From an uncultured Deinococcales bacterium (GTDB taxonomy: Bacteria > Deinococcota > Deinococci > Deinococcales > JAAFIG01): a stretch of DNA of 10,568 nt. Below the pieces are notes generated by a model that saw only the letters and a list, made by a program, of their open reading frames with translations, searched no databases and was not told the origin of the DNA. The number at the start of each line of letters is the position of its first letter. Within the stretch, counting starts at the first letter, position 1. Made by a program: the position numbers and the translations under genes. The DNA is taken from contig CAXTTL010000171.1 in NCBI GenBank assembly GCA_964247135.1, positions 1 through 10,568 of the forward strand. Reading direction: 5' to 3'. Of this stretch, positions 1-10,568 are shown piece by piece.

Positions 1-513
1 CAATATTTTGACGAGTCAAGCGTAGATCGTCTCGGAAAAATTATTTTTTCAACCGATCCGGTTGCCAAAGGGATCAAACCAGGCAACGAGATGCAAGATT
101 TTAAATTGCGCACCAGTGAGGGCAAAGTGGTGTCCTGGAGCGATTACAAGGGCAAACCGGTGATCATCAATTTTTGGGGTTCATGGTGCCCACCTTGCCG
201 TGCCGAAATGCCAAAACTTAATGCCCTTTTCGACAAATACAAATCGAGCGGCTTGATCGTTCTGGGCATCAATTACGCCGAGACGCCGGATGTCGCCGAG
301 AAATACCTGAGCGCAAACCCGATCAATTACATCGTTTTGTACGGCTTAAACGACCCAATGGTCGAGACTCGAGCCTTGTTTAGCGCTTGGGGCGGCAGCG
401 GCGTACCTTGGAATTTGTTTGTCGGCAAGGACGGTAAAGTCTCGAGCTGGGTGTTCGGTTACGGACCAGGTTCGGAGATTGACATGGAGCAAAAAATCAA
501 AGATATTTTGTAA
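1..513 (+). CDS. TlpA/ResA-family thiol-disulfide oxidoreductase (redoxin), 5' partial
   Basis: YKGKPVIINFWGSWCPPCRAEMP with a CxxC motif in a thioredoxin-like fold. The frame is open from position 1 (QYFDESSVDRLGK...), so the true start lies upstream of the window. Confidence 0.9.
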   Translation, partial: QYFDESSVDRLGKIIFSTDPVAKGIKPGNEMQDFKLRTSEGKVVSWSDYKGKPVIINFWGSWCPPCRAEMPKLNALFDKYKSSGLIVLGINYAETPDVAEKYLSANPINYIVLYGLNDPMVETRALFSAWGGSGVPWNLFVGKDGKVSSWVFGYGPGSEIDMEQKIKDIL

Positions 514-525
514 AGCGACCCGAAC

Positions 526-562
526 AAAACGGCTCGAGCATCGAACTCGAACCGTTTTTATT
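526..562 (+). terminator. Intrinsic terminator after the redoxin gene
   Basis: AAAACGGCTCGAG (526-538), 7-nt loop, CTCGAACCGTTTT (546-558), one mismatch. It ends in TTTTTATT and starts 12 nt after the stop codon. Confidence 0.75.
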
Positions 563-737
563 GCCAGTTGCTGATGCGCCGGTATTTGGTAAACAATTTG
601 CCCGTGCCGATTTTGGAATTTTGCAGCGCTCGAGCGGCAAAGTTTAAACCAAATATCCCTCCTCAAAGTCTGCCATTAAGGTCAACGGGCTTTAAAACTT
701 GTGAATCGCAAAACAATCGATTTTGTCAGGCTCGGCA

Positions 738-743
738 TATACT
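738..743 (+). promoter_or_regulatory. Putative -10 element (TATACT) for a leaderless cmk transcript
   Basis: TATACT lies 6 nt before an in-frame GTG at 750, with no Shine-Dalgarno and no convincing -35. Confidence 0.5.
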
Positions 744-749
744 GAATTG

Positions 750-1421
750 GTGAGCCTCGAGATGCCCTTTACACGGATTCAACTTTCAAACTCAAGCGTG
801 ATCACCATCGACGGGCTGGCAGCCAGTGGTAAATCCAGCGTGGCTCAGGGCGTTGCTCGGGCTTTAAACGTGCCTTTTGTCTCGAGTGGACTCTTGTACC
901 GCGCCGTGACTTACGCGGCGTTGCATCATCAAATCAGCCTCGAAAACGAAGCTGAGATTTTGCGAATGTTCGAGCAAAACCTGCTCAAACTCGAGCCGGC
1001 AAACGATGGCAACCGAGTGTTTTTGAATGGGCGGGACATCACCGAACTCTGTCACTCGAGTCTGGTCGACGCCAATGTCAGTGTGGTTGCGCTTCATCAA
1101 AAAGTTCGGGCTTGGGTGAATACGCAAATTCGAGCACTTCGGACACCTTTTGTTGCCGAAGGGCGAGACATGGGCGCGGTGGTCTTTCCTGATGCCGGCG
1201 TGAAATTGTTCCTGACCGCCTCGAGTGGCGTTCGTGCCAAACGCCGAACTTTAGAGCGCCCCGAAGAATTTGAAAATATCAAACGCATGATTGACGCTCG
1301 AGACGCCAAAGACGCCATCAATTCTGGGGCGGCGCAAGACGCAGTCAAGCTTGACACGGATAACTTGAATCTCGAGGAGGTGATTGCTGCGAGCTTAAAG
1401 GCGATAGCAGCCAAATCGTGA
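750..1421 (+). CDS. cmk: Cytidylate kinase
   Basis: ITIDGLAASGKSS P-loop, SSGLLYRA, VAEGRDMGAVVFPDA, KLFLTAS, and RDAKD motifs. The start is uncertain: GTG 750 (preferred, leaderless geometry), ATG 762 or GTG 798. Confidence 0.93.
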   Translation: MSLEMPFTRIQLSNSSVITIDGLAASGKSSVAQGVARALNVPFVSSGLLYRAVTYAALHHQISLENEAEILRMFEQNLLKLEPANDGNRVFLNGRDITELCHSSLVDANVSVVALHQKVRAWVNTQIRALRTPFVAEGRDMGAVVFPDAGVKLFLTASSGVRAKRRTLERPEEFENIKRMIDARDAKDAINSGAAQDAVKLDTDNLNLEEVIAASLKAIAAKS

Positions 1422-2050
1422 ACGACAAAAATCCTGATTTGTCCAACGCGCCCAGAAACTTTGATTTCATCAAAAAATTCTGGTGGTATTACATCGGTTT
1501 TTTGGGTTTGAGCTTCGAGCATCCAGAGTACATTCCGCTCACTGGTGGCGCGATCATTGCCGCCAACCACGTGACCCTGATCGATCCGTTCGCCGTTGGG
1601 CAACCCACACCGCGCCGGGTGCATTTTATGAGCAAGAAAGAGAATTTTAACACGCCGTGGGGAAGATGGTTTCAATATTCGGGCAACGCCTTTCCGGTGG
1701 ATCGCGGCAAGCCCGACATCAACGCCGTTAAAACCGCACTGCGAATTCTGAAAGGCGGGCAGTTGCTGGTGATTTTTCCGCAAGGTACACGCAACGGACA
1801 GGCGGCAAAAGACGGCGTCGGGTTGTTCGCCGCTCGAGCCAAAGTGCCCGTGATTCCGGCTGGCATCATCCTCGAGCGCAACTGGTTTGGCGGCAAACGC
1901 TTTAGGGTCCGTTACGGCGCACCAATTTTACCAGAAGGCAACGCTGAAGAGATCACCTCCAAGGTGATGCTCGAGATTGAGAATTTGATTGGAAAACCTG
2001 GGTCATTGACCAGTCATCATGAAGCCAATGCCGTGACCCAAGGTGAGTAA
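1418..2050 (+). CDS. plsC: 1-acyl-sn-glycerol-3-phosphate (lysophospholipid) acyltransferase, PlsC family
   Basis: NHVTLID (HX4D), FPVDRG, IFPQGTR and VPVIP blocks. GTGA overlap with the cmk stop; cmk-plsC linkage is common. Confidence 0.88.
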   Translation: MNDKNPDLSNAPRNFDFIKKFWWYYIGFLGLSFEHPEYIPLTGGAIIAANHVTLIDPFAVGQPTPRRVHFMSKKENFNTPWGRWFQYSGNAFPVDRGKPDINAVKTALRILKGGQLLVIFPQGTRNGQAAKDGVGLFAARAKVPVIPAGIILERNWFGGKRFRVRYGAPILPEGNAEEITSKVMLEIENLIGKPGSLTSHHEANAVTQGE

Positions 2051-2809
2051 TTGAACCAGCAAGTTTTGAAATACCTCGAGCGTGATGTGATGCAAAACAT
2101 TGTCGCTTTGAAAATGTTAACTGCGCATGATGGTGCGCGATGTTTTTATCGGTCCAACACTTTTGGCGAAGCCGCAATGATTCTGCTCGAGCCAAGCGCT
2201 TTTGCGTATGACCGAGAGCATTACCCGAATGCCGACTGCATTTGCATCGTCTCAAGCGACCATCCAATATTGACGGCTTGGTTGCTCGAGGAACTTGATG
2301 CAAAGCAAAAAGTGGTGTTCAAACTCAAATCCGATACCGACGCGCTCGAGGTTCAAAAGCGCTTCGATATCAAACCCATCACCTCGTTTTTATCTTTCAC
2401 CGACATCAGACCGTACTCGAGCGACAGTCATGTTTGTATCAGCACCAAACCCAGTCAAAAGTTCTTTGAATTCATTGCCACCCAAGGTCACACTCAAGAT
2501 TGGCTCGAGCCGTTGCTGGATGACGGTTGGGCTTTTTGCTGTGAACTTTTCAACGACGATCAAAAGCTCGAGTCGGTCTGTTTTGCCTTTGAAAATTACG
2601 GGTCGCTTTGGGAAATTGGTGGGGTTTACACGCCGCCAGCGTCTCGAGGTCGAGGGCTGGCGTCACGAACGGTTTGTGCGGCAGTTGGCGAGCTGCAAAA
2701 AGGCGGCAAACGCAGCCGTTACCAGGTTCATCAGGAAAATTCTGTCTCGATTCGGGTTGCACAACGCGCACAACTCGAGTTGTTTTTGACCATCACACAT
2801 TGGTTTTAA
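2051..2809 (+). CDS. GNAT-family N-acetyltransferase (C-terminal GNAT domain, uncharacterised N-terminal domain)
   Basis: EIGGVYTPPASRGRGLAS (acetyl-CoA motif A) and NSVSIRVAQRA. The TTG start directly follows the plsC stop; ATG 2090 is an alternative. Confidence 0.8.
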   Translation: MNQQVLKYLERDVMQNIVALKMLTAHDGARCFYRSNTFGEAAMILLEPSAFAYDREHYPNADCICIVSSDHPILTAWLLEELDAKQKVVFKLKSDTDALEVQKRFDIKPITSFLSFTDIRPYSSDSHVCISTKPSQKFFEFIATQGHTQDWLEPLLDDGWAFCCELFNDDQKLESVCFAFENYGSLWEIGGVYTPPASRGRGLASRTVCAAVGELQKGGKRSRYQVHQENSVSIRVAQRAQLELFLTITHWF

Positions 2810-2861
2810 CGTGTTCAATCAAAAGCTCGAGTTGGAGCAGATAAAATCGGTGTCCTTTCGA

Positions 2862-2879
2862 GGCGCATTGCCATGCGCC
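2862..2879 (-). other. Short GC-rich hairpin immediately 3' of the MocR stop
   Basis: Minus strand reads GGCGCAT-GGCA-ATGCGCC: a 7-bp stem with a GNRA loop, 1 nt after the TAG. There is no U-tract. Confidence 0.4.
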
Positions 2880-2880
2880 G

Positions 2881-4296
2881 CTACGGCAGATGTTGCTCGA
2901 GCCAAACCTTGCCCAAACGCTTGATGCCCTCCTCGAGCATGGGTTGATCGCAGGCGGCGAAACTCAGGCGCACAAAAGAACCTGGGGCTTCGGCTGGAAA
3001 CCATGCCCTGCCCGCACTGATTTGCACGCCGGCGGTCGCAGCATGTTGGGCGAACAGAATTTCGTTGCTGCCCTGGGGAAGCTCGAGCCAAACGCTGAAG
3101 CCACCCTTTGGCACGTGCGTCACTTGAGCCTGCGGGAAGTCAAGCGCCAGGGCTTTCAAGGTGGCATCCCTGCGTGCCCTCAGGCGGTCACGGAGGCGCT
3201 TGAGGTGCTTTTGCCAACCTGAACTCGTGACCAGTTCCAAAGCCACCTCCTGAAGCTCCAAACTGACAAACAGATCATCGACGGCTCGGGTCGTGCGCAA
3301 ACGGTTCATGACTGCGCCCTTGGCGATCACGGCGGCAACCCGCAGGCTCGGCGCGGCGCATTTGGAGAGGCTGCGAATGTAGACCACCCGCCCGTCGCCC
3401 TGGGCAAACATTGGCGGCAGCGCCGTCCCGTCCAAGGTCAGTTCGCGGGCGTAATCGTCTTCGATGACAAACGCCCCTGCCCATGCTGCCACGTCCAGCA
3501 CGGCACGGCGACGCTCCAAACCGAGGCTCGAGCCGGTCGGGTTGGCGTAAAGCGGCTGCAAATACACCGCTCGAGCATTGGTGTTTTTGAAGGCAACCTC
3601 GAGCAAATCTGGGCGGATGCCCTCAGAATCGGTTGGCACCGGCACCGCGCGAATGCCAGCCGATTGGGCGACCGCGAGCGCCCCAAAATAGGTCGGGCTT
3701 TCAAACAAGATCGCCTCGCCTGGCGGCACGATGGCTCGCATGGTGCTCGAGACGGCGGCTTGACCCCCAGGCACAATCAGCACATCATTCGCCCGAGCCT
3801 CACCGCCGACGGTTTGCGCAAACCACGCCCGCAACGGCTCGAGTCCGTCCAAGGGTGCCCGCGCCCAAATGCCTGGTCGCCTGCCCGCACGGGTCATGGC
3901 GGCTGCCAGCATCGCCAACGGTTGCAGGCTCTCGTCGGGGTAGCCGCTGCCGAGCGGAATGTTTAAGGCGCTCGGCGGACTCAGCAGGGTCTGAATCTCG
4001 TCGCTGACAATCGTTCGTGCTCCCAAGGTTAAACTCTGCCAACCCAGGTCGCTCGAGTTAACGGCTCTGGGCGGCTCAATCTTGAACGTGCCATGCCCTG
4101 GCTTGGTCACGATCAAACCCGCCCGAACCAAATGTGTGATGGCGCGTTGCACGGTGACTGGGCTGGCTTTGTGGCGCCTCGTCAACTCGCGCACGCTTGG
4201 AACTTGCGTTCCTGGCAGCAATCCCTCGAGTTCGCTCTGAATTTGAAGCGCCAAATGTTCCGAGGCTCTGATCGGTTTGCGCATTTCGCTTTCCAT
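2881..4296 (-). CDS. MocR/GabR-family transcriptional regulator (GntR wHTH plus PLP-dependent aminotransferase-like domain)
   Basis: N-terminal PSVRELTRRHKASPVTVQRA..L...GLIVTKPGHGTF. AAT domain with ESPTY, NPTG, IEDDY and SLSK (PLP lysine), and LRV. Start reassigned to ATG 4296, because the ORF-track extension to 4437 overlaps the EamA gene. Confidence 0.92.
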   Translation of the reverse strand: MESEMRKPIRASEHLALQIQSELEGLLPGTQVPSVRELTRRHKASPVTVQRAITHLVRAGLIVTKPGHGTFKIEPPRAVNSSDLGWQSLTLGARTIVSDEIQTLLSPPSALNIPLGSGYPDESLQPLAMLAAAMTRAGRRPGIWARAPLDGLEPLRAWFAQTVGGEARANDVLIVPGGQAAVSSTMRAIVPPGEAILFESPTYFGALAVAQSAGIRAVPVPTDSEGIRPDLLEVAFKNTNARAVYLQPLYANPTGSSLGLERRRAVLDVAAWAGAFVIEDDYARELTLDGTALPPMFAQGDGRVVYIRSLSKCAAPSLRVAAVIAKGAVMNRLRTTRAVDDLFVSLELQEVALELVTSSGWQKHLKRLRDRLRARRDATLKALALDFPQAQVTHVPKGGFSVWLELPQGSNEILFAQHAATAGVQISAGRAWFPAEAPGSFVRLSFAACDQPMLEEGIKRLGKVWLEQHLP

Positions 4297-4357
4297 GGTG
4301 TTATCATATAACATGAACAGACCCAGTAACGTTACCCTGCAAACCGGAGTAACACCA
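4296..4357. promoter_or_regulatory. Divergent promoter/operator region between MocR and EamA
   Basis: Overlapping -10-like hexamers TATCAT (+, 4302-4307) and TATGAT (-, 4308-4303) sit inside TGTTAT-N3-ATAACA (4299-4313). Also a perfect palindrome GTAACGTTAC (4326-4335) and an inverted pair TGGTGTTA (4296-4303)/TAACACCA (4350-4357). Confidence 0.65.
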
Positions 4358-4378
4358 ACCGCGCGGGGTGCATCATGA
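4313..4378 (+). CDS. Putative 21-aa leaderless uORF (MNRPSNVTLQTGVTPTARGAS) coupled to EamA
   Basis: ATG lies 5 nt after TATCAT, and its TGA overlaps the EamA ATG (ATGA, 4375-4378). Confidence 0.4.
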   Translation: MNRPSNVTLQTGVTPTARGAS

Positions 4379-5301
4379 ACCCGCAACTCGAGCAGCCTGA
4401 CTTGAGGCTTAAAACCACAACCACCAATCACAAACACGATCTCGAGGGAACCATTTACGCCCTGCTCGGAATCTTAATGTTTTCGATGACGCTGACGGCT
4501 TCTCGAGTCATCGTGCCAGTGTTGGGTGGAACGTTTGTGGGTTTGGGACGCGCCGTGCTCGCCGCGACACTTGCCGCAATCGTCCTGATCTCGAGACGCG
4601 AACCGTTTCTCGAACGCCGTTATTGGCGTTCAATCTGCATCACCGCGCTGGGGATTGTGTTTGGTTTCCCGCTCCTCTCGAGCCTTGCCCTCAAGACCAT
4701 TCCCGCCATTCATGCGGTGGTCATCACAGGCTTGCTTCCCGCCATGACCGCCACCCTCGCCGTCATCCGAACTCGAGAACGTACCTCTCCCCTGTTCTGG
4801 GCGGCGGTGGCGCTCGGTGTGGTTGGTGTGCTGGGGTTTGCCGTGATCGAAGGCGCCGGCAAACCCCAACCCGCCGATCTGCTGCTGTTTGGCGCTGGTT
4901 TGCTCGGCGCGGTGGGTTATGTCGAGGGCGGCATTCTGGCAAAAGAAATTGATGGTTGGCGCGTGGTCAGTTGGGCATTGATTTTTTCCTTGCCATTTTT
5001 GATTCCACCCGTGCTGTTCAGTCTCCCCTCGAGCCTCCCAACACAACCCATTGTCTGGATTTGTTTTGTTTACGTCGGCGCGATCAGCATGTACCTCGGG
5101 TTTTTTGCCTGGTACAAAGGCTTGGCACTGGCTGGAATCGCCCGCTCGAGCGCCCTGCAAGTCTTGCAACCCTTGTTCAGCATGGTTTGGGCGGTTTTGC
5201 TGCTGCACGAACAACTGCACGTTCAAACGATTTTTGCCGCCATCATCGTGATTGCCAGCGCGACCCTCTCGAGGTTCGCCCGCATGAAAGGGGCAGCATG
5301 A
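4375..5301 (+). CDS. DMT/EamA-family transporter
   Basis: About 10 hydrophobic segments in two repeats. Motifs GLGRAVLA, LLPAMTA..A..R..ER and FFAWYKGL...Q.LQP......A..LLHE. Typical divergent partner of MocR regulators. Confidence 0.9.
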   Translation: MNPQLEQPDLRLKTTTTNHKHDLEGTIYALLGILMFSMTLTASRVIVPVLGGTFVGLGRAVLAATLAAIVLISRREPFLERRYWRSICITALGIVFGFPLLSSLALKTIPAIHAVVITGLLPAMTATLAVIRTRERTSPLFWAAVALGVVGVLGFAVIEGAGKPQPADLLLFGAGLLGAVGYVEGGILAKEIDGWRVVSWALIFSLPFLIPPVLFSLPSSLPTQPIVWICFVYVGAISMYLGFFAWYKGLALAGIARSSALQVLQPLFSMVWAVLLLHEQLHVQTIFAAIIVIASATLSRFARMKGAA

Positions 5302-5717
5302 ATTTGGAAGGGTTTTCAATCTCGACTGACAAAACCAAACTCGATCTCGAGGTGATCTGCCATTTTCTTGCTGGCGCGTACTGGGCGAATCAACGTTCAC
5401 GGGACACCATCAAAAAATCGCTCGAGTATTCCTTAAACTTTGGTTTGTACCATCTGGGCAATCAAATTGGTCTGGCTCGAGTCGTCACCGATCACGCCAC
5501 GTTCGCGTACTTGTGCGATGTGTTTGTGCTTGAGGAATACCAAGGGCGCGGGCTTGGAAAGTTTTTGTTGCAAACCGTGCTCGAGCATCCAGAGTTAACC
5601 AACCTGCGACGGTTTATGTTGGCAACTCGAGACGCACACGGCTTGTATTCGCAGTTTGGTTTTGAAGCTTTGGCTGCGCCAGACAGGTGGATGGAACGGT
5701 TTAACAAAAACGCTTGA
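5298..5717 (+). CDS. GNAT-family N-acetyltransferase (139 aa)
   Basis: ISTDKTKLD..I..FL...YWA, IGLARVVTD, YLCDVFVLEEYQGRGLGK, and ATRDAHGLYSQFGF. True start is ATG 5298 (ATGA overlap with EamA), not 4956. Confidence 0.9.
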   Translation: MNLEGFSISTDKTKLDLEVICHFLAGAYWANQRSRDTIKKSLEYSLNFGLYHLGNQIGLARVVTDHATFAYLCDVFVLEEYQGRGLGKFLLQTVLEHPELTNLRRFMLATRDAHGLYSQFGFEALAAPDRWMERFNKNA

Positions 5718-5813
5718 GCCTCGAGATGTTCATTTTGGAACTTTGAAAGTGCGTTTGTCGTATAGATTCTCTGGAATGCGTTTTCGGTAATGCAACCAGG
5801 GAAGTGATTTTTT

Positions 5814-6335
5814 GTGAAAACGGTGGTCAGTCAGCGTGGTTTGAAATGGTGGGCGAACATTGTCGCTCGAGTTATTCTATTGGGGTGGTTGATCGAAACC
5901 TCTTTTAATTTTGGAAAACTTATCATAATTAAATTACCAACCACAAAATCTTTTGAAATGCAAATTATAACAATTGTTTTTTTTCTCATGTGTTTTATCT
6001 GTATTTTTGTAGTTTTTGAAATTTTAAAACATTTTTTTCAATACACAATTATGGTATCAAAAGATGGAATATACGAAATTATGGGAAATGAGAAAACTTT
6101 TCACTCATTTGAGAATATCAATAAAATTAAAATGCACTTTCATTCGACAAAATACACGCAATGGAAGGAGCTTGAATTATTTTTGGTTAACCAAAAAGAC
6201 TCCGCTATACTTCAAACACGTAGGTTTGATAACACAAGAGAACTTAATCTGGTCATCATGGATCAATCCAGGGTTATCAACCCAGAAATTCAGATTGATA
6301 GTGCATGTCTTACAGCTTATCGGCATCACCCATAG
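5814..6335 (+). CDS. Hypothetical membrane protein (two N-terminal TM segments plus soluble domain), AT-rich
   Basis: A 173-codon ORF stays open in DNA whose sampled 60-nt lines are 18-30% GC. Two hydrophobic stretches. Start uncertain; no recognisable family. Confidence 0.6.
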   Translation: MKTVVSQRGLKWWANIVARVILLGWLIETSFNFGKLIIIKLPTTKSFEMQIITIVFFLMCFICIFVVFEILKHFFQYTIMVSKDGIYEIMGNEKTFHSFENINKIKMHFHSTKYTQWKELELFLVNQKDSAILQTRRFDNTRELNLVIMDQSRVINPEIQIDSACLTAYRHHP

Positions 6336-6449
6336 TCAGTACAACTCGAGTATCAATTGAGTCAGTTATGGTGGCTTTAAATATCTTAGTTTACTTTTTA
6401 AATCTCGAGCCAAGAAATGAGTGCAAACTCGAGTGCTCAGGTTGTTTGG

Positions 6450-6479
6450 TTGACACGATTATGCACTTGCGCATACAAT
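6450..6479 (+). promoter_or_regulatory. Sigma70-type promoter for the mgtE leader
   Basis: TTGACA (6450-6455), 18-nt spacer, TACAAT (6474-6479). Predicted TSS near 6485-6487. Confidence 0.8.
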
Positions 6480-6482
6480 CAC

Positions 6483-6511
6483 GTTGTCTTGAACCTTGCG
6501 TTCAAGACAAC
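6483..6511. repeat. Perfect 12-bp inverted repeat at the predicted TSS
   Basis: GTTGTCTTGAAC-CTTGC-GTTCAAGACAAC. Confidence 0.85.
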
Positions 6512-6540
6512 CCGAGTTCACAGCTTCACACTCGAGTTTT

Positions 6541-6756
6541 AGGAGGTGGTTATGGAACCCATTCCCAGTTCAGGGTCAGTGCCGTTATCTTGCACTTCGG
6601 GTGTTCATGCCGCGCTCCAAACAAAATCTGTTTGAGTTCATCATGACTTCCTGACCTGAATTCGCTTCGGGCGCGGTATCGTGCTCCATTCCCTGAATGT
6701 TGTCACCAAATGTTCGGGCGTTGCTCTTTGCGGGCATCAGGAGGTGAAATCATGAT
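6541..6756 (+). promoter_or_regulatory. Structured cis-regulatory leader of mgtE with alternative anti-RBS / anti-anti-RBS pairings
   Basis: 6640-6654 is complementary to the mgtE SD and ATG (6737-6756). Alternatively 6651-6662 pairs with 6567-6579, and 6642-6646 pairs with 6605-6609. Confidence 0.65.
6552..6635 (+). CDS. Putative mgtE leader peptide, 27 aa (MEPIPSSGSVPLSCTSGVHAALQTKSV)
   Basis: Perfect SD AGGAGGT at 6541-6547, ATG 6552, TGA 6633-6635. Pro at codons 3, 5 and 11. Confidence 0.6.
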   Translation: MEPIPSSGSVPLSCTSGVHAALQTKSV

Positions 6757-8149
6757 TCTTGAAGGTACAACGCTACAGCCGCTCGAGTTGCTCGAGGTTT
6801 TAAAAGAGGGTCGGCGCGACGAGTTTAAAGGTTTGCTGCGAAGCCAGCCCGAAACCGTGGTGGACGCGGCGTTCGAGGATGCAACCCGTGACGAACGCTT
6901 GGAATTCTTGCGTTTGATGCCGGTCGAACGGGCGGCGAACACGTTCACGGATTTGTCGCTCGAGGATCAAAGCGATTTCTTGCCCGATCTGTCCAGCGAC
7001 CGCATTCGGGTCATGGGCGCGTTTTTTGGTCCGGACGAAATGGCAGATTTGCTGGGCGAACTCGAGTCGGACGCGGATGCCAGGGCGTATCTGATCTCGA
7101 GTTTGCCGCCGACCCTCGCCAAAAGTGCGCTCGAACTCGAGTTGTACCCCGACGATGACGCGGGCGGTATGATGACGCCAGAATTTGTGGCGGTGCGTGA
7201 GGGTTGGAGCGTCGGGCACGCGATTCAATTTTTGCGCCAAGCCGCAGACCACGCCGAGACGGTGCAGAATCTGTATTTGGTGAACACAGGCGGTCAATTG
7301 CGCGGCATCATTCCGCTTCAAGCGTTAATCACCGCACCCGCAATGGCAAAAGTCGAAGACTTGGCGCGGCTCGAGATTATTTTTGCCAGAACCGACACAG
7401 GTCAAGAAGAGGTTTCGCGCCTGATGCGCGATTACGATTTGGCGGTCATGCCAATTGTCGATGAATCTGGGGTTCTAAAAGGAATTGTCACGATTGACGA
7501 TGTGATTGACGTACTCGAGGAGGAAGCCACCGATGATATTTACAAGGGCGCGGCGATTCAGGGTGGCGAGTTCGAGTACCGAACCGCCAGTCCGTTTTTG
7601 CTGTGGCGCAAACGCATTGGCTGGTTGTTGATTTTGTTTGTGACCGAAAGTTTAACCGCAAATGTGATCGGGGCTTACGACGGACTGATTAAGGCTGCAC
7701 CGTTGCTGGCAGTTTATTTGCCCACTTTGATCGGGACTGGTGGCAATACAGGATCGCAATCGGCGACCTTGGTCATTCGGGCGATTGCGTTGGGTGAAAT
7801 TCGAGGGCGCGACGCCTGGCGGGTGATGTTCAAAGAACTTGGTGCTGGGTTATTGATTGGCGCGACGATTGGCATTGTGGCTTTTGCCCGAATTGTGTTG
7901 TTTCGCCGAAATCAGGGTTTGGGCTTGGCGCTCACGGCGGCAATTTCGATGTTTCTGATTGCCATTTTTGCCAACATCACTGGGGCGTTGCTGCCGATTT
8001 TGTTTAAGAAACTCAAAGTCGATCCCGCGTTAACCTCCAGTCCATTTTTGGCAACGGTCATGGATGCAACGGGCTTGTTGATCTATTTTGGGCTGGCACA
8101 ATTTTTGATTCATTTGGGCATCTATCAACTCGAGCCGATCAAACCATGA
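6752..8149 (+). CDS. mgtE: Magnesium transporter MgtE (N domain, CBS pair, 5-TM domain)
   Basis: AGGMMTPEFVAV, GIVTIDDVIDVLEEEATDDI, GTGGNTGSQ and DPALTSSPFLATVMDATGLLIY with the pore Asp. SD AGGAGGT at 6739-6745 supports ATG 6752. Confidence 0.96.
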   Translation: MILEGTTLQPLELLEVLKEGRRDEFKGLLRSQPETVVDAAFEDATRDERLEFLRLMPVERAANTFTDLSLEDQSDFLPDLSSDRIRVMGAFFGPDEMADLLGELESDADARAYLISSLPPTLAKSALELELYPDDDAGGMMTPEFVAVREGWSVGHAIQFLRQAADHAETVQNLYLVNTGGQLRGIIPLQALITAPAMAKVEDLARLEIIFARTDTGQEEVSRLMRDYDLAVMPIVDESGVLKGIVTIDDVIDVLEEEATDDIYKGAAIQGGEFEYRTASPFLLWRKRIGWLLILFVTESLTANVIGAYDGLIKAAPLLAVYLPTLIGTGGNTGSQSATLVIRAIALGEIRGRDAWRVMFKELGAGLLIGATIGIVAFARIVLFRRNQGLGLALTAAISMFLIAIFANITGALLPILFKKLKVDPALTSSPFLATVMDATGLLIYFGLAQFLIHLGIYQLEPIKP

Positions 8150-8184
8150 ATTGAAGCTCAGTGTTGAACCACTCTGTCCTTCTC

Positions 8185-8215
8185 GGCTCGAGCCAACCTC
8201 GAGCCTGTTTCATTT
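8185..8215 (+). terminator. Possible terminator hairpin between convergent mgtE and glutaminyl cyclase genes
   Basis: GGCTCGAG-CCAAC-CTCGAGCC (8185-8205) followed by TGTTTCATTT, a weak U-tract. Confidence 0.5.
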
Positions 8216-8980
8216 GATTTCGATCTCGTATAAAAATGCCCAGTATTTTCCGGTCACAAAAATACGTTTTGTGGCGGCATCATAGGCAATTCCGTTTAAA
8301 ACCGCATCCGGATTTTCGGTCCCAAATTTTGGTTTTAAGCCCGTCAGGTCAATGTATGCCGTTATTTTGCCGGTGGTCGGGTTGATACGGGCAATCTTAT
8401 TCGTATACCAAATGTTTGCCCATATTTCGCCGTTGATCCACTCGAGTTCGTTGATCTGATTGATTGGCTTTCCACCGTCGGTCACTTCCAGGGTTTTGAT
8501 GGTTTTAAAATCGCTGGCGTTGCGGAAGTAAATGGTGCTCGAGCCGTCGGATTGAATCAGGTTTTTGCCGTCGGTGCTCAAACCCCAACCTTGGGTGTCA
8601 TATGGCAGGGTTTTGAGGAGTTTAAAATTGCTCGAGTAGACAAAAGCGGTTTTGCTGAGCCACGTCAGTTGATAAAATTTGCCATTCAGGTAGCTTAAAC
8701 CTTCGCCAAATTTGTCGGCTGGAAGGGGCTGTTTTTGAATCACCTCGCCCGTTTCGAGCTTCACTTTGCGAATGTCGCTGTGCCCGTTTTGTCCGGTGCT
8801 TTCAAACAAAAACCCGTCTTTGTAGAGCAGTCCTTCGGTATAAGCCGTTGGGTCGTGCAGGTAGGTATTTAAGATTTTGTAACCTTGAACGGGCGTGCTC
8901 GGATTTTGTGAGTACACCCTAGACGCGAGAAAGCCCAAACTCGAGATCACAAGACAAATCACGGCGCTGCGTTTGTTCAT
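8210..8980 (-). CDS. Glutaminyl-peptide cyclotransferase (plant/bacterial beta-propeller type), secreted
   Basis: HDPTAYTEGL, ESTG, FGEGL, QLTW, GWGL, SDGS, NELE, ANIW, VLNGIAYD and VTGKYW motifs. N-terminal signal peptide; SD AGGA upstream. Confidence 0.92.
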   Translation of the reverse strand: MNKRSAVICLVISSLGFLASRVYSQNPSTPVQGYKILNTYLHDPTAYTEGLLYKDGFLFESTGQNGHSDIRKVKLETGEVIQKQPLPADKFGEGLSYLNGKFYQLTWLSKTAFVYSSNFKLLKTLPYDTQGWGLSTDGKNLIQSDGSSTIYFRNASDFKTIKTLEVTDGGKPINQINELEWINGEIWANIWYTNKIARINPTTGKITAYIDLTGLKPKFGTENPDAVLNGIAYDAATKRIFVTGKYWAFLYEIEIK

Positions 8981-9021
8981 GTTTTTATCCTAACGCGATT
9001 TAAACCTGGGTTGTCTCGGGT

Positions 9022-9669
9022 TTATTTTTTGACAGGGGTGGTCGTGCTGTTGACCGCCACCACTTTGGTTTTGTCGCCCACTTGAAATGCCACGAACGAG
9101 TAGGACTGCGTCGATTGCAGCCGCAATTTAAAGCTCGAGTTTTTCTTGTCCTTGCTGTAGGCGTCAAAACTGATGCTGAGGGGGTTGACCAAAATATCTT
9201 GACTGGCGTTTGGCTTTAAATCTTTAAAAACGCTGGTGCCATCGCTTGTTTTGATGCTGAGCAGGTCGCTCGAGAAGTTGTAGGCGAGCAATTGGGCTTT
9301 GACTTTGTTGGCAATTTTTTTGTCGTTAAAGCTTTTGACGCTCAAATTGTTGCTCGCGCCGACGATTGCCAGGGTATAAAACTTGCCCGCTTTCGCTGTC
9401 AACGTGGCACTTGTTTTGTTGGTTCCACTTTGCATTTCAAAGCTGTGATTGCCCGCCTTGAGCACTTCATAGGGCAGAATCCCTTGGGCGGTCAGCGCGG
9501 CAATCCAGGGTTTGCCATCGAGTTTAACGGCTATCGGTGACGCCCCCAACTCCGCGTCAATGATTCGCACGAAGCTCGAGTTGGCGGGCGGTTCTGGGGC
9601 GTACAGTCCTTGCGCCAGGGCTATTGGGGTCAAAACGATCAACAGGCTCAACATCTTGGTGGGTTTCAT
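9022..9669 (-). CDS. algF: AlgF-like periplasmic O-acetylation accessory protein
   Basis: Signal peptide ending ALA, then GLYAPEPPANSSFVRII matching the AlgF N-terminal LY.P.PP..SAFVR pattern. Two beta-rich repeats; adjacent to an AlgX/AlgJ-like gene. Start ATG 9669 is preferred (AAAGGA upstream). Confidence 0.78.
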   Translation of the reverse strand: MKPTKMLSLLIVLTPIALAQGLYAPEPPANSSFVRIIDAELGASPIAVKLDGKPWIAALTAQGILPYEVLKAGNHSFEMQSGTNKTSATLTAKAGKFYTLAIVGASNNLSVKSFNDKKIANKVKAQLLAYNFSSDLLSIKTSDGTSVFKDLKPNASQDILVNPLSISFDAYSKDKKNSSFKLRLQSTQSYSFVAFQVGDKTKVVAVNSTTTPVKK

Positions 9670-9745
9670 GGGTCCTTTCAAAACGCGTCTGCTCGAGTTT
9701 GAACAAACCTGATGAATTTTGAATGAAGTCCTGATTGTACCGAAC

Positions 9746-10568
9746 CTATTTCAAAGCGCAGATTTTGGTGTTCTCGAGTTTCGGGTTGACATCGCCGTCA
9801 CTTGCCACGACACTCAAAGAGCTGACATTCAAGCCGTCCGGCAAAGCAATATTCAGGTCATGCGGATCGTCGTCGTCGGCTCGGGTGGCGGTCAAGGCTT
9901 TACGCTGGTTATCGCTCGCCAAAAAACGCAACTCGATTTGGCTCACGCCGCTGGCGGTGATACGCGTGTGCAAATACCAACCGCTTCGGGGACTGGGTTT
10001 GGCAAATTGCACCACACCATTTTTGAGGCTGCTCGAGATGCCATTCTCTCCGCAGTCGCCCAAAATCCAAGGTCCCAGCGTTTGGCTCAAATGCCTGACC
10101 TTGTCGGTGGCGGTACGGTAAATGTATTCTGGAACTTCCCAGACGATCAATTTAGGCGGGTTTTGTGAAAACGCATCGCTGGTAAAATACTCGCCCGCGC
10201 TGGTGGCAATGCCGCCGCCAGGGATCGAGACGTTGGCGACGGGGCTTTGCAGGGCAACCTCCAAATTGTCCGGAAAGGCGTGCTTGTTGACCTCGGCGCT
10301 GAAACTGGTGCCGATCAAAACCGTGGCTGGTGCCGTGTCAAACAAACTCGAGCCGGAGACGGCAGAGACGGCTTTGTACAACTGATAGGTTTCACTCGCG
10401 GGTGGCAGAATACCCAGCCTGGTTTTTGCCGCGTCGTCGAGCACAAAGCCGTTCAGGCTGAGGTTCTTGTCTGGAATATCGGTCGGGGTTTTGCGGCGTT
10501 TGCCGTCTGGCTCGAGTTTGTACCTGACGGTCGGTAAATGTTGTCGCCAACCGTTTTGGTAAACGTAA
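9746..10568 (-). CDS. AlgX/AlgJ-family SGNH-like polysaccharide O-acetyltransferase with C-terminal beta domain, 5' partial
   Basis: SLFD.....VLIGTSFS (catalytic Ser), V.NVSIPGGG and F...PPKLIVWEVPE motifs. The frame is open to the window end (YVYQNGWRQHLPTVRYKLEPDG...). Confidence 0.8.
   Translation of the reverse strand, partial: YVYQNGWRQHLPTVRYKLEPDGKRRKTPTDIPDKNLSLNGFVLDDAAKTRLGILPPASETYQLYKAVSAVSGSSLFDTAPATVLIGTSFSAEVNKHAFPDNLEVALQSPVANVSIPGGGIATSAGEYFTSDAFSQNPPKLIVWEVPEYIYRTATDKVRHLSQTLGPWILGDCGENGISSSLKNGVVQFAKPSPRSGWYLHTRITASGVSQIELRFLASDNQRKALTATRADDDDPHDLNIALPDGLNVSSLSVVASDGDVNPKLENTKICALK

Follow-up and report, generated by a model that had tools for sequence, protein, structure and literature searches.

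The stretch of DNA considered here, contig CAXTTL010000171.1 of an uncultured Deinococcales bacterium (10,568 nt; hereafter the window, i.e., contig C171 of the source genome G000), raises the question of why the six-base palindrome CTCGAG is written 77 times across a run of ordinary housekeeping genes, and of what keeps it there. These genes encode an AhpC/TSA-family protein, a cytidylate kinase (cmk), an acyltransferase, GNAT-family proteins, a GntR-aminotransferase, an EamA transporter, MgtE and a glutamine cyclotransferase. In the light of the comparisons reported below, CTCGAG is almost certainly a lineage-specific highly iterated palindrome (HIP), present in all long-resident DNA of an uncultured Deinococcales family (family f1) and kept by a force that acts on exactly six bases and is opposed by protein and RNA constraint.

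Within the window, the count is exactly 77, the first copy at 368-373 and the last at 10511-10516, i.e., 7.3 per kb, while 200 shuffles preserving dinucleotides gave a mean of 1.67 (standard deviation 1.2, largest 6) and none of the 200 reached 77. A first-pass annotation of this DNA, made from the letters alone, had given about 77 copies for about 2.6 expected, and had placed them in every gene as well as in intergenic DNA; both points are borne out, as each of the 13 open reading frames (ORFs) holds 1-11 sites and 7 more lie in the 605 bp outside ORFs. The word is read 40 times as CTC-GAG, 12 times as xCT-CGA-Gxx and 22 times as xxC-TCG-AGx, a sum greater than the number of sites in ORFs because two overlapping ORFs share some of them. 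The three frames were also correctly recognised by the annotation within cmk, namely Leu-Glu at 990 and 1371, x-Ser-Ser at 881, 1055 and 1220, and Ala-Arg-Asp at 1297, to which a further Leu-Glu at 756 can be added, and so were the 5' G in 36 of the 77 copies and the mild RCTCGAGY bias (40/77).

The excess pervades the source genome. G000 (5.09 Mb in 386 contigs, 84% complete, 52.7% guanine plus cytosine (GC)) holds 33,925 copies of CTCGAG, one per 150 bp (6.7 per kb), which makes it the commonest hexamer, more than 2-fold ahead. The observed/expected ratio (O/E) amounts to 24.8 under a mononucleotide model and to 35, 14 and 3.5 under Markov models of order 1, 2 and 3, respectively; the maximum-order Markov ratio was set aside in favour of orders 1-3 and coding-aware shuffles, since it is uninformative when CTCGAG itself dominates the pentamers. 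Far from being confined to the window's contig, the word is carried by all 386 contigs (minimum 2.56, median 6.81 per kb), and 0 of 4,128 3-kb windows hold two copies or fewer. Nor is it a library artefact, as it recurs in 19 species-level genomes of family f1 with many accession prefixes, one of them a closed chromosome, and as metagenome contigs match the window: in a separate freshwater metagenome run, three short contigs do so with 0-1 differences across six sites, parts of the window being without cover. When sequencing runs were searched for the window, a single DNA run was listed, sharing 0.06 of its words, and no RNA run was among those listed.

The earlier inference that codon or dipeptide usage is insufficient to account for the sites holds at the scale of the genome. 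In a proxy gene set, obtained without a gene caller from ORFs of at least 200 aa taken longest first and non-overlapping (2,994 ORFs, 3.68 Mb), 23,966 sites were counted (14,699 CTC-GAG, 3,690 xCT-CGA-Gxx and 5,577 xxC-TCG-AGx), compared with 3,243-3,363 in 5 synonymous-codon shuffles preserving the protein and the per-gene codon usage (about 2,560, 254 and 494 by frame) and 1,377-1,410 in 3 whole-codon shuffles. The synonymous shuffle is thus exceeded 7-fold overall, and by 14.5-fold and 11-fold where the frame is not that of Leu-Glu. As the excess outlives this shuffle, the objection from codon usage fails, and the proteins themselves are altered. The Leu-Glu frame makes up 61% of the coding sites, and 77% of the 19,086 Leu-Glu pairs in G000 ORFs are spelled CTCGAG, where codon use elsewhere predicts 5%; no other dipeptide of the genome is as over-represented as Leu-Glu (O/E 2.36), whose O/E in alanyl-tRNA synthetase (AlaRS) is 2.2-2.7 in 7/7 copies from family f1 compared with 0.85-1.67 in 9/9 others. 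In ORF-free DNA (no 70-codon frame; 74 kb, 42% GC), the density is 6.41 per kb vs 6.51 in genes.

The sites are kept between congeners. Of the window sites aligned in four congeners, 28/40, 35/46, 34/42 and 32/43 are conserved, compared with 32-40% of other hexamers. For the best congener, G005, of which 400 kb were used (contigs C76, C6, C63, C9, C10 and C57, chosen for length), the alignment with G000 covers 294.6 kb at 85.9% identity; 1,651 of 2,122 CTCGAG of G000 are kept in G005 (78%), and 1,651 of 1,924 in the reverse direction (86%), vs 47% of other hexamers. Where the amino acid is the same, the same codon is kept inside and outside CTCGAG at frequencies of.919 and.572 for CTC,.941 and.701 for GAG,.920 and.722 for TCG, and.805 and.581 for CGA. 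Aligned ORF-free DNA behaves likewise, with 29/45 sites (64%) kept vs 34% of other hexamers. The 376 one-base differences between sites, mostly transitions, fold to 125, 139 and 112 over half-site positions 1, 2 and 3; such an even distribution across the half-site indicates that the word has no inner methylase core, unlike HIP1, the classic cyanobacterial HIP.

The unit on which the force acts is the bare hexamer, as previously annotated, and not a longer repeat. The information in the flanks does not exceed 0.07 bits at any position, and their divergence stays at the genome mean (0.13-0.15) up to the very edge of the site; a divergence gradient of the kind that conversion tracts would leave was sought around sites in the G000-G005 alignment and none was seen. 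One-mismatch words of CTCGAG stand at just 0.5-2 times expectation in G000, and 62% of all TCGA copies fall within CTCGAG. The palindrome arms are at chance (at least 2 extra pairs in 6.1% of sites vs 6.25% expected). A dispersed repeat of the repetitive extragenic palindrome (REP) or miniature inverted-repeat transposable element (MITE) type was rejected on these flanks and arms, and so was a role as apex of terminator hairpins, at least 4 extra pairs occurring in 1.3% of sites after stops vs 0.4% in ORFs. Spacing is near-random (mean 148, median 108, coefficient of variation 0.96; Fano factor 1.12 in 1-kb windows), spacings of 6-20 bp being under-represented (1,469 vs 3,129 expected) and a spacing of 6, which would create GAGCTC, never being seen in G000. 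New sites within 50 bp occur at 6.4% near a kept site, 9.6% around random positions and 12.2% near a lost site (52/426), i.e., the returns of extra sites diminish at short range. Density is even along genes and doubled within 40 nt past stop codons (13.6 and 10.5 per kb).

Against this force stand the constraints on proteins and RNA. From the least to the most conserved quartile of proteins, CTCGAG density falls from 8.48 to 7.94, 6.31 and 5.35 per kb, with a Spearman coefficient of -0.43 for density vs protein identity in 177 genes. The force nonetheless overrides protein sequence, 190 of 342 coding sites private to G000 coinciding with an amino-acid difference. The 66 predicted tRNA genes of G000 hold 10 sites (1.95 per kb); as for rRNA genes, three primer-type motifs were searched in the assembly and none was found. 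CTCGAG marks long-resident DNA: gaps of at least 1.3 kb free of the word number 32 vs about 5 expected, many of them at 27-40% GC, and the recently acquired MvaI/BcnI restriction-modification (R-M) pair of G000 (38-40% GC) has 0-1.3 sites per kb.

Of ten ORFs annotated in the largest gaps, five are ORFans, and others encode a Wzy_C O-antigen ligase, an AAA_16 protein, an AAA_21/AAA_15 (OLD/AbiEii-like) ATPase and a fusion of reverse transcriptase and trypsin. The fusion (G000:C4:51606-53234, locus L204:1607-3235) is a CTCGAG-free ORF of 35% GC in which a reverse transcriptase is joined to a trypsin-like peptidase, and it looks like a defence gene of retron or DRT type. Further CTCGAG-free islands carry the OLD/AbiEii-like ATPase (C20) and ORFans of 26-31% GC (C13, C1). 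On the closed f1 chromosome, G011, a C5 methyltransferase (42% GC, 0 sites) adjoins an HD-CE domain protein (34% GC) at C1:4982132-4983683 (locus L131:437-2532), a pair that has the appearance of an island acquired recently.

Copies were counted in 363 genomes of the order (including an unpublished one, G325, on which no claim rests). All 19 genomes of family f1 hold 4.3-6.9 CTCGAG per kb, most of their sizes being rounded, most genomes being incomplete metagenome-assembled genomes (MAGs) and kin not being independent; they include G011 (5,085,195 bp, 23,515 copies). Families f2, f4 and f5 mostly show 1-3.5 per kb. The 111 genomes of the Deinococcus-type genus g7 have just 26-1,372 copies each, and the word is avoided in Deinococcus-type genomes. 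Genus g19 of family f3 is divided in this respect, with 8.6 per kb in G149, 7.0 in G150 and 0.3 in G151. The AlaRS fragment of G150 is 81% identical to that of G151 and 66-73% to all others (about 68% to f1), and the two AlaRS loci have a GC content of 0.514 and 0.511 but 8.8 and 0.3 sites per kb; the placement of the G149 fragment is less clear, and the site-by-site comparison of G150 with G151 covers 419 aligned bp and one site. A quick AlaRS tree of 28 of the 80 loci plus G000, restricted to near-full-length Deinococcota rows and three outgroups (fragments, ten further Meiothermus rows and other phyla being left out), gathers all 14 high-density copies in one clade (SH-aLRT 100). Ten f1 copies of AlaRS contain 186 CTCGAG vs 23.0 after synonymous shuffle (8.1-fold), 10 Thermaceae copies 69 vs 23.9 (2.9-fold; 59/118 Leu-Glu pairs), and two Deinococcus copies 1 vs 1.8. 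On the thin basis of this one gene, the Thermaceae show a milder form of the excess, so that the enrichment in Meiothermus-type genomes suggested in the first-pass annotation is partly right; the extreme carriers are an uncultured Deinococcales family and not Meiothermus. The trait varies by degrees within the order, with no fewer than two changes of state, and it behaves as a discrete, switchable character, as seen from G150 and its congener G151 of like GC.

Outside cellular genomes, two viral contigs from IMG/VR among the matches listed have CTCGAG as their top hexamer (L413, 57 sites in 9.7 kb without GAGCTC; L426, 73 sites in 14.2 kb, 56.5% GC), at 4-6 times what an order-1 model predicts, both in ORFs, where all frames are used, and in the DNA between them. 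These contigs were picked by the feature itself from at least 120 loci scanned, so that their frequency carries no meaning, and tblastx of both against G000 gave no match. A literature search, supplementary oligomer tables being outside it, returned no report of CTCGAG as an iterated palindrome or of its being tied to Deinococcota.

The system to which these properties invite comparison is that of the cyanobacterial HIPs, namely HIP1 (GCGATCGC) and the alternates GGCGCC, GCCGGC and GCsGC, described at a density of about one per kb and with a cognate methyltransferase for each (Elhai, 2015, PMC4390886). HIP1 is reported as 15- to 300-fold over-represented and as periodic along the chromosome at 10-90 kb (Xu, Lawrence and Durand, 2018, PMC5861425). 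It has been presented as a by-product of methyl-directed repair (Elhai, 2015) or as selected for nucleoid structure (Xu et al., 2018), and a role in uptake or recombination, read as dependent on methylation, has been argued (Kamoku and Nielsen, 2024, bioRxiv 10.1101/2024.09.10.611283; Rodriguez-Cruz et al., 2026, PMC13756078). Like HIP1 as described in these sources, CTCGAG is a short GC-rich palindrome, over-represented (25- to 35-fold) and unexplained as to function, which occurs in every frame as well as in intergenic DNA and is conserved more than the background; it is specific to a lineage, and clades include members that have lost or replaced it. Unlike it, CTCGAG is another word in another phylum, about 7 times denser, with no cognate methyltransferase detectable within the classes searched, with one-base deviations evenly spread instead of concentrated at the first and last positions, and with protein composition visibly changed. 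The proposal of a HIP1-analogous system therefore stands as far as over-representation, frames, non-coding DNA and conservation are concerned, the part that invoked an orphan methyltransferase with biased repair being unsupported.

Tentatively, and at somewhat less than even odds, we read CTCGAG as a 'self-DNA' watermark, kept site by site through a sequence-biased step of uptake or recombination carried out by a hypothetical reader protein; for its mechanism we infer a weak directional force acting per site. Some step of natural transformation or of the ensuing homologous recombination, whether the binding or uptake of DNA, its protection against degradation or the start of exchange, would favour CTCGAG-bearing fragments, so that alleles with one more site would replace alleles with one fewer, genome-wide. 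CTCGAG would accumulate in this way by molecular drive until the protein cost balances the gain. The reader would recognise six bases with the precision of a restriction enzyme, and may or may not need methylated sites, a need that is reported for HIP1 in cyanobacteria. True uptake sequences are described as roughly doubling the peptides they encode, as lacking from recently acquired genes and as preferring poorly conserved genes (Findlay and Redfield, 2009, PMC2817400), and the footprints of CTCGAG match on all three counts. Like the DNA uptake sequences (DUS) of Neisseriaceae and the uptake signal sequences (USS) of Pasteurellaceae treated there, the word accumulates throughout resident DNA and its extant copies are conserved. 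The raised density of CTCGAG just downstream of genes can also be likened to them. DUS and USS sit in terminators. Among the explanations considered by the first-pass annotation, the uptake signal is the one that fits the genomic footprints best.

Several points weigh against a watermark read at uptake or recombination. The reader protein is hypothetical, and the uptake bias is deduced from genome footprints, while for DUS and USS it has been shown by experiment. Known uptake sequences are 9-12 bases long, asymmetric and not palindromic, and occur about once per kb, whereas CTCGAG is a six-base palindrome with uninformative flanks at 6.7 per kb. Type IV pilus ATPases (PF00437) are present in 14/14 genomes tested, G000 included, but equally in the CTCGAG-poor G151 and in Deinococcus-type genomes, and hence do not discriminate. 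ORF-free DNA, where constraint is presumably lowest, has 6.4 sites per kb, not above the 8.5 of weakly conserved genes. Any weak force acting evenly on each site, biased repair and weak direct selection among them, would also leave all of these footprints. Viral contigs having CTCGAG as top hexamer are not predicted by a drive through transformation only, unless they are prophages. Finally, comparable conservation of HIP1 is taken as selection for a chromosomal function by Xu et al. (2018, PMC5861425).

A bolder formulation, which remains doubtful in our eyes, is that of a HIP system devoid of any cognate DNA methyltransferase, in which a novel protein of six-base precision, at work in uptake, recombination or repair, would rewrite the whole genome into the watermark of a species group. 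The rewriting would amount to tens of thousands of substitutions, amino-acid changes among them, and its determinant would be extreme in family f1 and two f3 genomes, off in their congener, mild in Thermaceae and, in Deinococcus, inverted to avoidance.

Of the rival explanations, the one surviving best, though unlikely, is the methyltransferase-linked biased mismatch repair of the Elhai (2015) model, where an orphan methylase would mark CTCGAG and methyl-directed nicking and repair would favour the site-making strand, the word being a by-product. The razor-sharp six-base specificity is typical of methyltransferases and restriction-type enzymes, the site differences are mostly transitions, and the force is self-limiting at short range, as the saturation argument of that model predicts (PMC4390886), but the density of CTCGAG is about 7 times the saturation level of about 1 per kb given there. 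The even spread of one-base deviations is at odds with a methylase core extended by repair. The search for the enzyme, whose negatives hold for recognised classes in what are mostly MAGs, specificity not being readable from sequence, also tells against it, even if these same limits leave room for a methylase of an unrecognised class or unreadable specificity. With a hidden Markov model (HMM) of the XhoI-family endonuclease (PF04555), 0/19 genomes of f1 and 0/125 of the neighbouring f3 gave a match, compared with 7/363 in the order as a positive control; a probe for the XhoI-partner methylase (340 aa, PF01555) found no orthologue in the 19 f1 genomes, G149 and G150 (at most 64 bits, motif only), while scoring 546-776 bits in three control genomes. 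G000 was searched without finding a Vsr, a TaqI_C domain or an XhoI-family gene. No methyltransferase class common to all f1 genomes was found when PF07669, PF01555, C5, Dam-class and PF02384 were profiled: PF07669 matches vary from 0 to 9 per genome, PF01555 was not found in the closed, single-contig G011, despite its 23,515 sites, nor in G015, C5 enzymes were not found in G008, Dam-class matches are weak in G008 and G009, and those to PF02384 are diverse type I, IIG or IIL enzymes. The orphan methyltransferase with biased repair advanced in the first-pass annotation thus finds no support, as the searches returned no XhoI-family endonuclease or partner methylase in 21 high-density genomes, no Vsr in G000 and no universal class, and as there is no inner core. 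That CTCGAG is kept without a detectable cognate methyltransferase or inner core, and with uptake-like footprints, favours the uptake or recombination view of HIPs over that of a repair by-product.

Individual candidates fared no better. The recurrent Eco57I-hit proteins of about 500 aa are diverse type I HsdM subunits (23-98% identity) adjoining HsdS; the M.TaqI-like enzyme of G009 (499 aa; PDB 2adm, E 2e-8) is found, among the loci examined, in just G009 and G014; and a 466-aa methyltransferase on C4 of G000 has just 24% identity to its G009 counterpart. The sole orphan-like enzyme of G011, a Dam-class gene amid housekeeping genes, is 70% identical to a copy in G007 but was not found in G000, G008 or G009. 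G150 has four methyltransferase genes of two classes that are absent from its CTCGAG-poor congener G151, a contrast which would suit biased repair, but these are homologues of the PvuII-type (66-68%) and SacI-linked (70-73%) methylases of f1. Every classical type II methyltransferase of G000 adjoins an endonuclease of another specificity, i.e., PvuII, NgoPII, Eco29kI, SacI-like, MvaI/BcnI or NotI-like. Besides those of Table 1, the R-M genes of G000 comprise a NotI-like pair, the MvaI/BcnI pair, two MmeI-like enzymes, a type I system and a methylase-SNF2 fusion.

A word that serves as a restriction target is normally avoided. As regards METHYLTRANSFERASES and restriction, the R-M genes of G000 match several of the palindromes that this genome avoids, namely GAGCTC (0 copies), GGCC (380, O/E 0.016), CCGCGG (11) and CAGCTG (15), and about 20 hexamer palindromes stand at an O/E below 0.1; the general avoidance of restriction-type palindromes noted in the first-pass annotation thus applies in G000 to other words of the kind. 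The f1 genomes are under exceptional restriction pressure. CTCGAG in f1 is neither a restriction target nor a by-product of the R-M systems found. GAGCTC, which is CTCGAG written backwards, has 0 copies in the 5.09 Mb of G000, the window included, and 0-25 in most f1 genomes; a SacI-like gene is present in 20/363 genomes, its carriers being the GAGCTC-poor ones, and G008, in which it was not found, has 568 GAGCTC. As a driver of CTCGAG, the SacI-like endonuclease with its Dam-class methylase (C320) was rejected, as six Deinococcus-type carriers have 10-75 GAGCTC and 40-419 CTCGAG; carriers poor in both words mean that this gene explains the absence of GAGCTC but not the excess of CTCGAG. XhoI/PaeR7I-type systems share the six-base site and, with a 340-aa PF01555 methylase, occur in 7/363 genomes of the order, but neither gene was found in the high-density genomes, where CTCGAG is enriched. 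In five f4 genomes, XhoI-family endonuclease genes lie convergent with a 340-aa PF01555 methylase gene of SPPY motif; with 1,400-3,900 CTCGAG, these genomes show no avoidance of the site. In-frame stops interrupt some of the SacI-like and XhoI-family endonuclease genes (G003:C699:5357-6448, L180; G248:C14; G356:C1:1095688-1096226, L197 and L198), which are likely signs of decaying restriction genes.

Direct selection for a chromosomal function of the sites, e.g., the binding of a nucleoid or DNA-repair protein, is an explanation to which we assign a low probability; in a relative of Deinococcus, it could serve fragment protection or alignment after DNA breakage. The retention of sites in coding and non-coding DNA beyond matched controls, an argument made for HIP1 by Xu et al. 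(2018, PMC5861425), would agree with it, as would a density alike in genes and ORF-free DNA and even along genes, in a word that the whole of f1 keeps. The near-random spacing, however, means that there is no regular lattice within the G000 contigs (at most 116 kb), and density gives way to protein constraint instead of staying uniform. Structural DNA-binding proteins usually tolerate near-cognate words, whereas one-mismatch words are not enriched, and both congener G151 and all Deinococcus-type genomes manage without CTCGAG.

Less probable again is a self marker related to defence, whereby a translocating nuclease or defence system would be attenuated by CTCGAG, as a palindromic counterpart of Chi, or would attack CTCGAG-poor DNA, host DNA and successful phages then being selected for richness in the word. 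The restriction pressure on G000, the foreign defence cargo of the CTCGAG-free islands and the viral contigs rich in CTCGAG in all frames are in keeping with it, and Kamoku and Nielsen (2024, bioRxiv 10.1101/2024.09.10.611283) liken HIP1 to Chi. No candidate system was identified, however, and the viral contigs were chosen by the feature and have no similarity to G000. Like Chi sites for RecBCD or AddAB, CTCGAG is a short 'self' word in excess, by which recombination or the action of a nuclease could be biased, but known Chi sites are asymmetric, strand-skewed and far rarer, by about 30 times.

Ordinary causes, i.e., codon or codon-pair usage, a longer dispersed repeat or an assembly or library artefact, have a negligible chance of being responsible despite the predominance of the Leu-Glu frame and the raised counts of GC-rich relatives, since the excess outlives the synonymous shuffle, in the other two frames above all, ORF-free DNA is equally dense, flanks are uninformative, arms are at chance and 19 separate assemblies agree.

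As to what CTCGAG means beyond these genomes, HIP1 has been unexplained for three decades and the reasoning about it rests on one phylum. CTCGAG offers an independent second test bed, about 7 times denser, in Deinococcota, with a sharp contrast between the congeners G150 and G151 and graded states over 363 genomes; if a methyltransferase-free HIP were true, the 30-year-old HIP question would be open to comparative genomics in a second phylum. On a practical level, the word distorts the codon, dipeptide and k-mer statistics of these genomes, in which one spelling serves most Leu-Glu pairs, it can serve as a simple marker in binning and in the detection of foreign DNA, and XhoI-type enzymes would cut this DNA to fragments of about 150 bp.

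Table 1. Positions of CTCGAG sites and genes in the window, and of the restriction-modification loci named in the text
Feature	Position	Strand	Remarks
CTCGAG array, 77 sites	368..10516	none (the word is its own reverse complement)	exact matches
Sites 533 and 629, in the spacer that separates the AhpC/TSA-family ORF from cmk	533..634	.	
cmk (cytidylate kinase) ORF, 7 sites in three frames	723..1421	+	PF02224, E 2e-50
Site in a spacer, 17 nt beyond the stop of the GNAT-family ORF 2051-2809	2826..2831	.	
GntR-aminotransferase (MocR-type) ORF, 11 sites	2881..4437	-	70-81% of aligned window sites kept in four congeners
Site 3 nt beyond the stop of the GNAT ORF 4956-5717	5720..5725	.	
mgtE ORF, 9 sites	6710..8149	+	aligns to more relatives than any other part of the window
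Sites 8187 and 8198, in the 60-bp spacer that separates mgtE (6710-8149, +) from the convergent gene of glutamine cyclotransferase (8210-8980, -)	8187..8203	.	
Site in the spacer between ORFs 9022-9681 (-) and 9746-10567 (-)	9692..9697	.	
PvuII-type endonuclease and PF01555 methylase	G000 C36:19235-21059 (locus L019)		matches CAGCTG (15 copies)
NgoPII-type endonuclease and C5 methylase	G000 C14:36040-37936 (locus L023)		matches GGCC (380 copies; window 0)
Eco29kI-type endonuclease and C5 methylase	G000 C178:2930-4752 (locus L024)		matches CCGCGG (11 copies)
SacI-family endonuclease (364 aa) overlapping a Dam-class methylase	G000:C320:1061-2985 (locus L026)		29.7 bits, cut-off 19.3
XhoI-family R-M pairs, family f4	G021:C1:74896-76793 (locus L195); L196, L191-L194		

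Within the window, the longest ORFs of the EamA transporter (4375-5301) and of the GNAT-family protein (4956-5717) overlap by 346 bp in the interval 4375-5717; as there is no such overlap between their Pfam matches, the GNAT gene probably starts further downstream.

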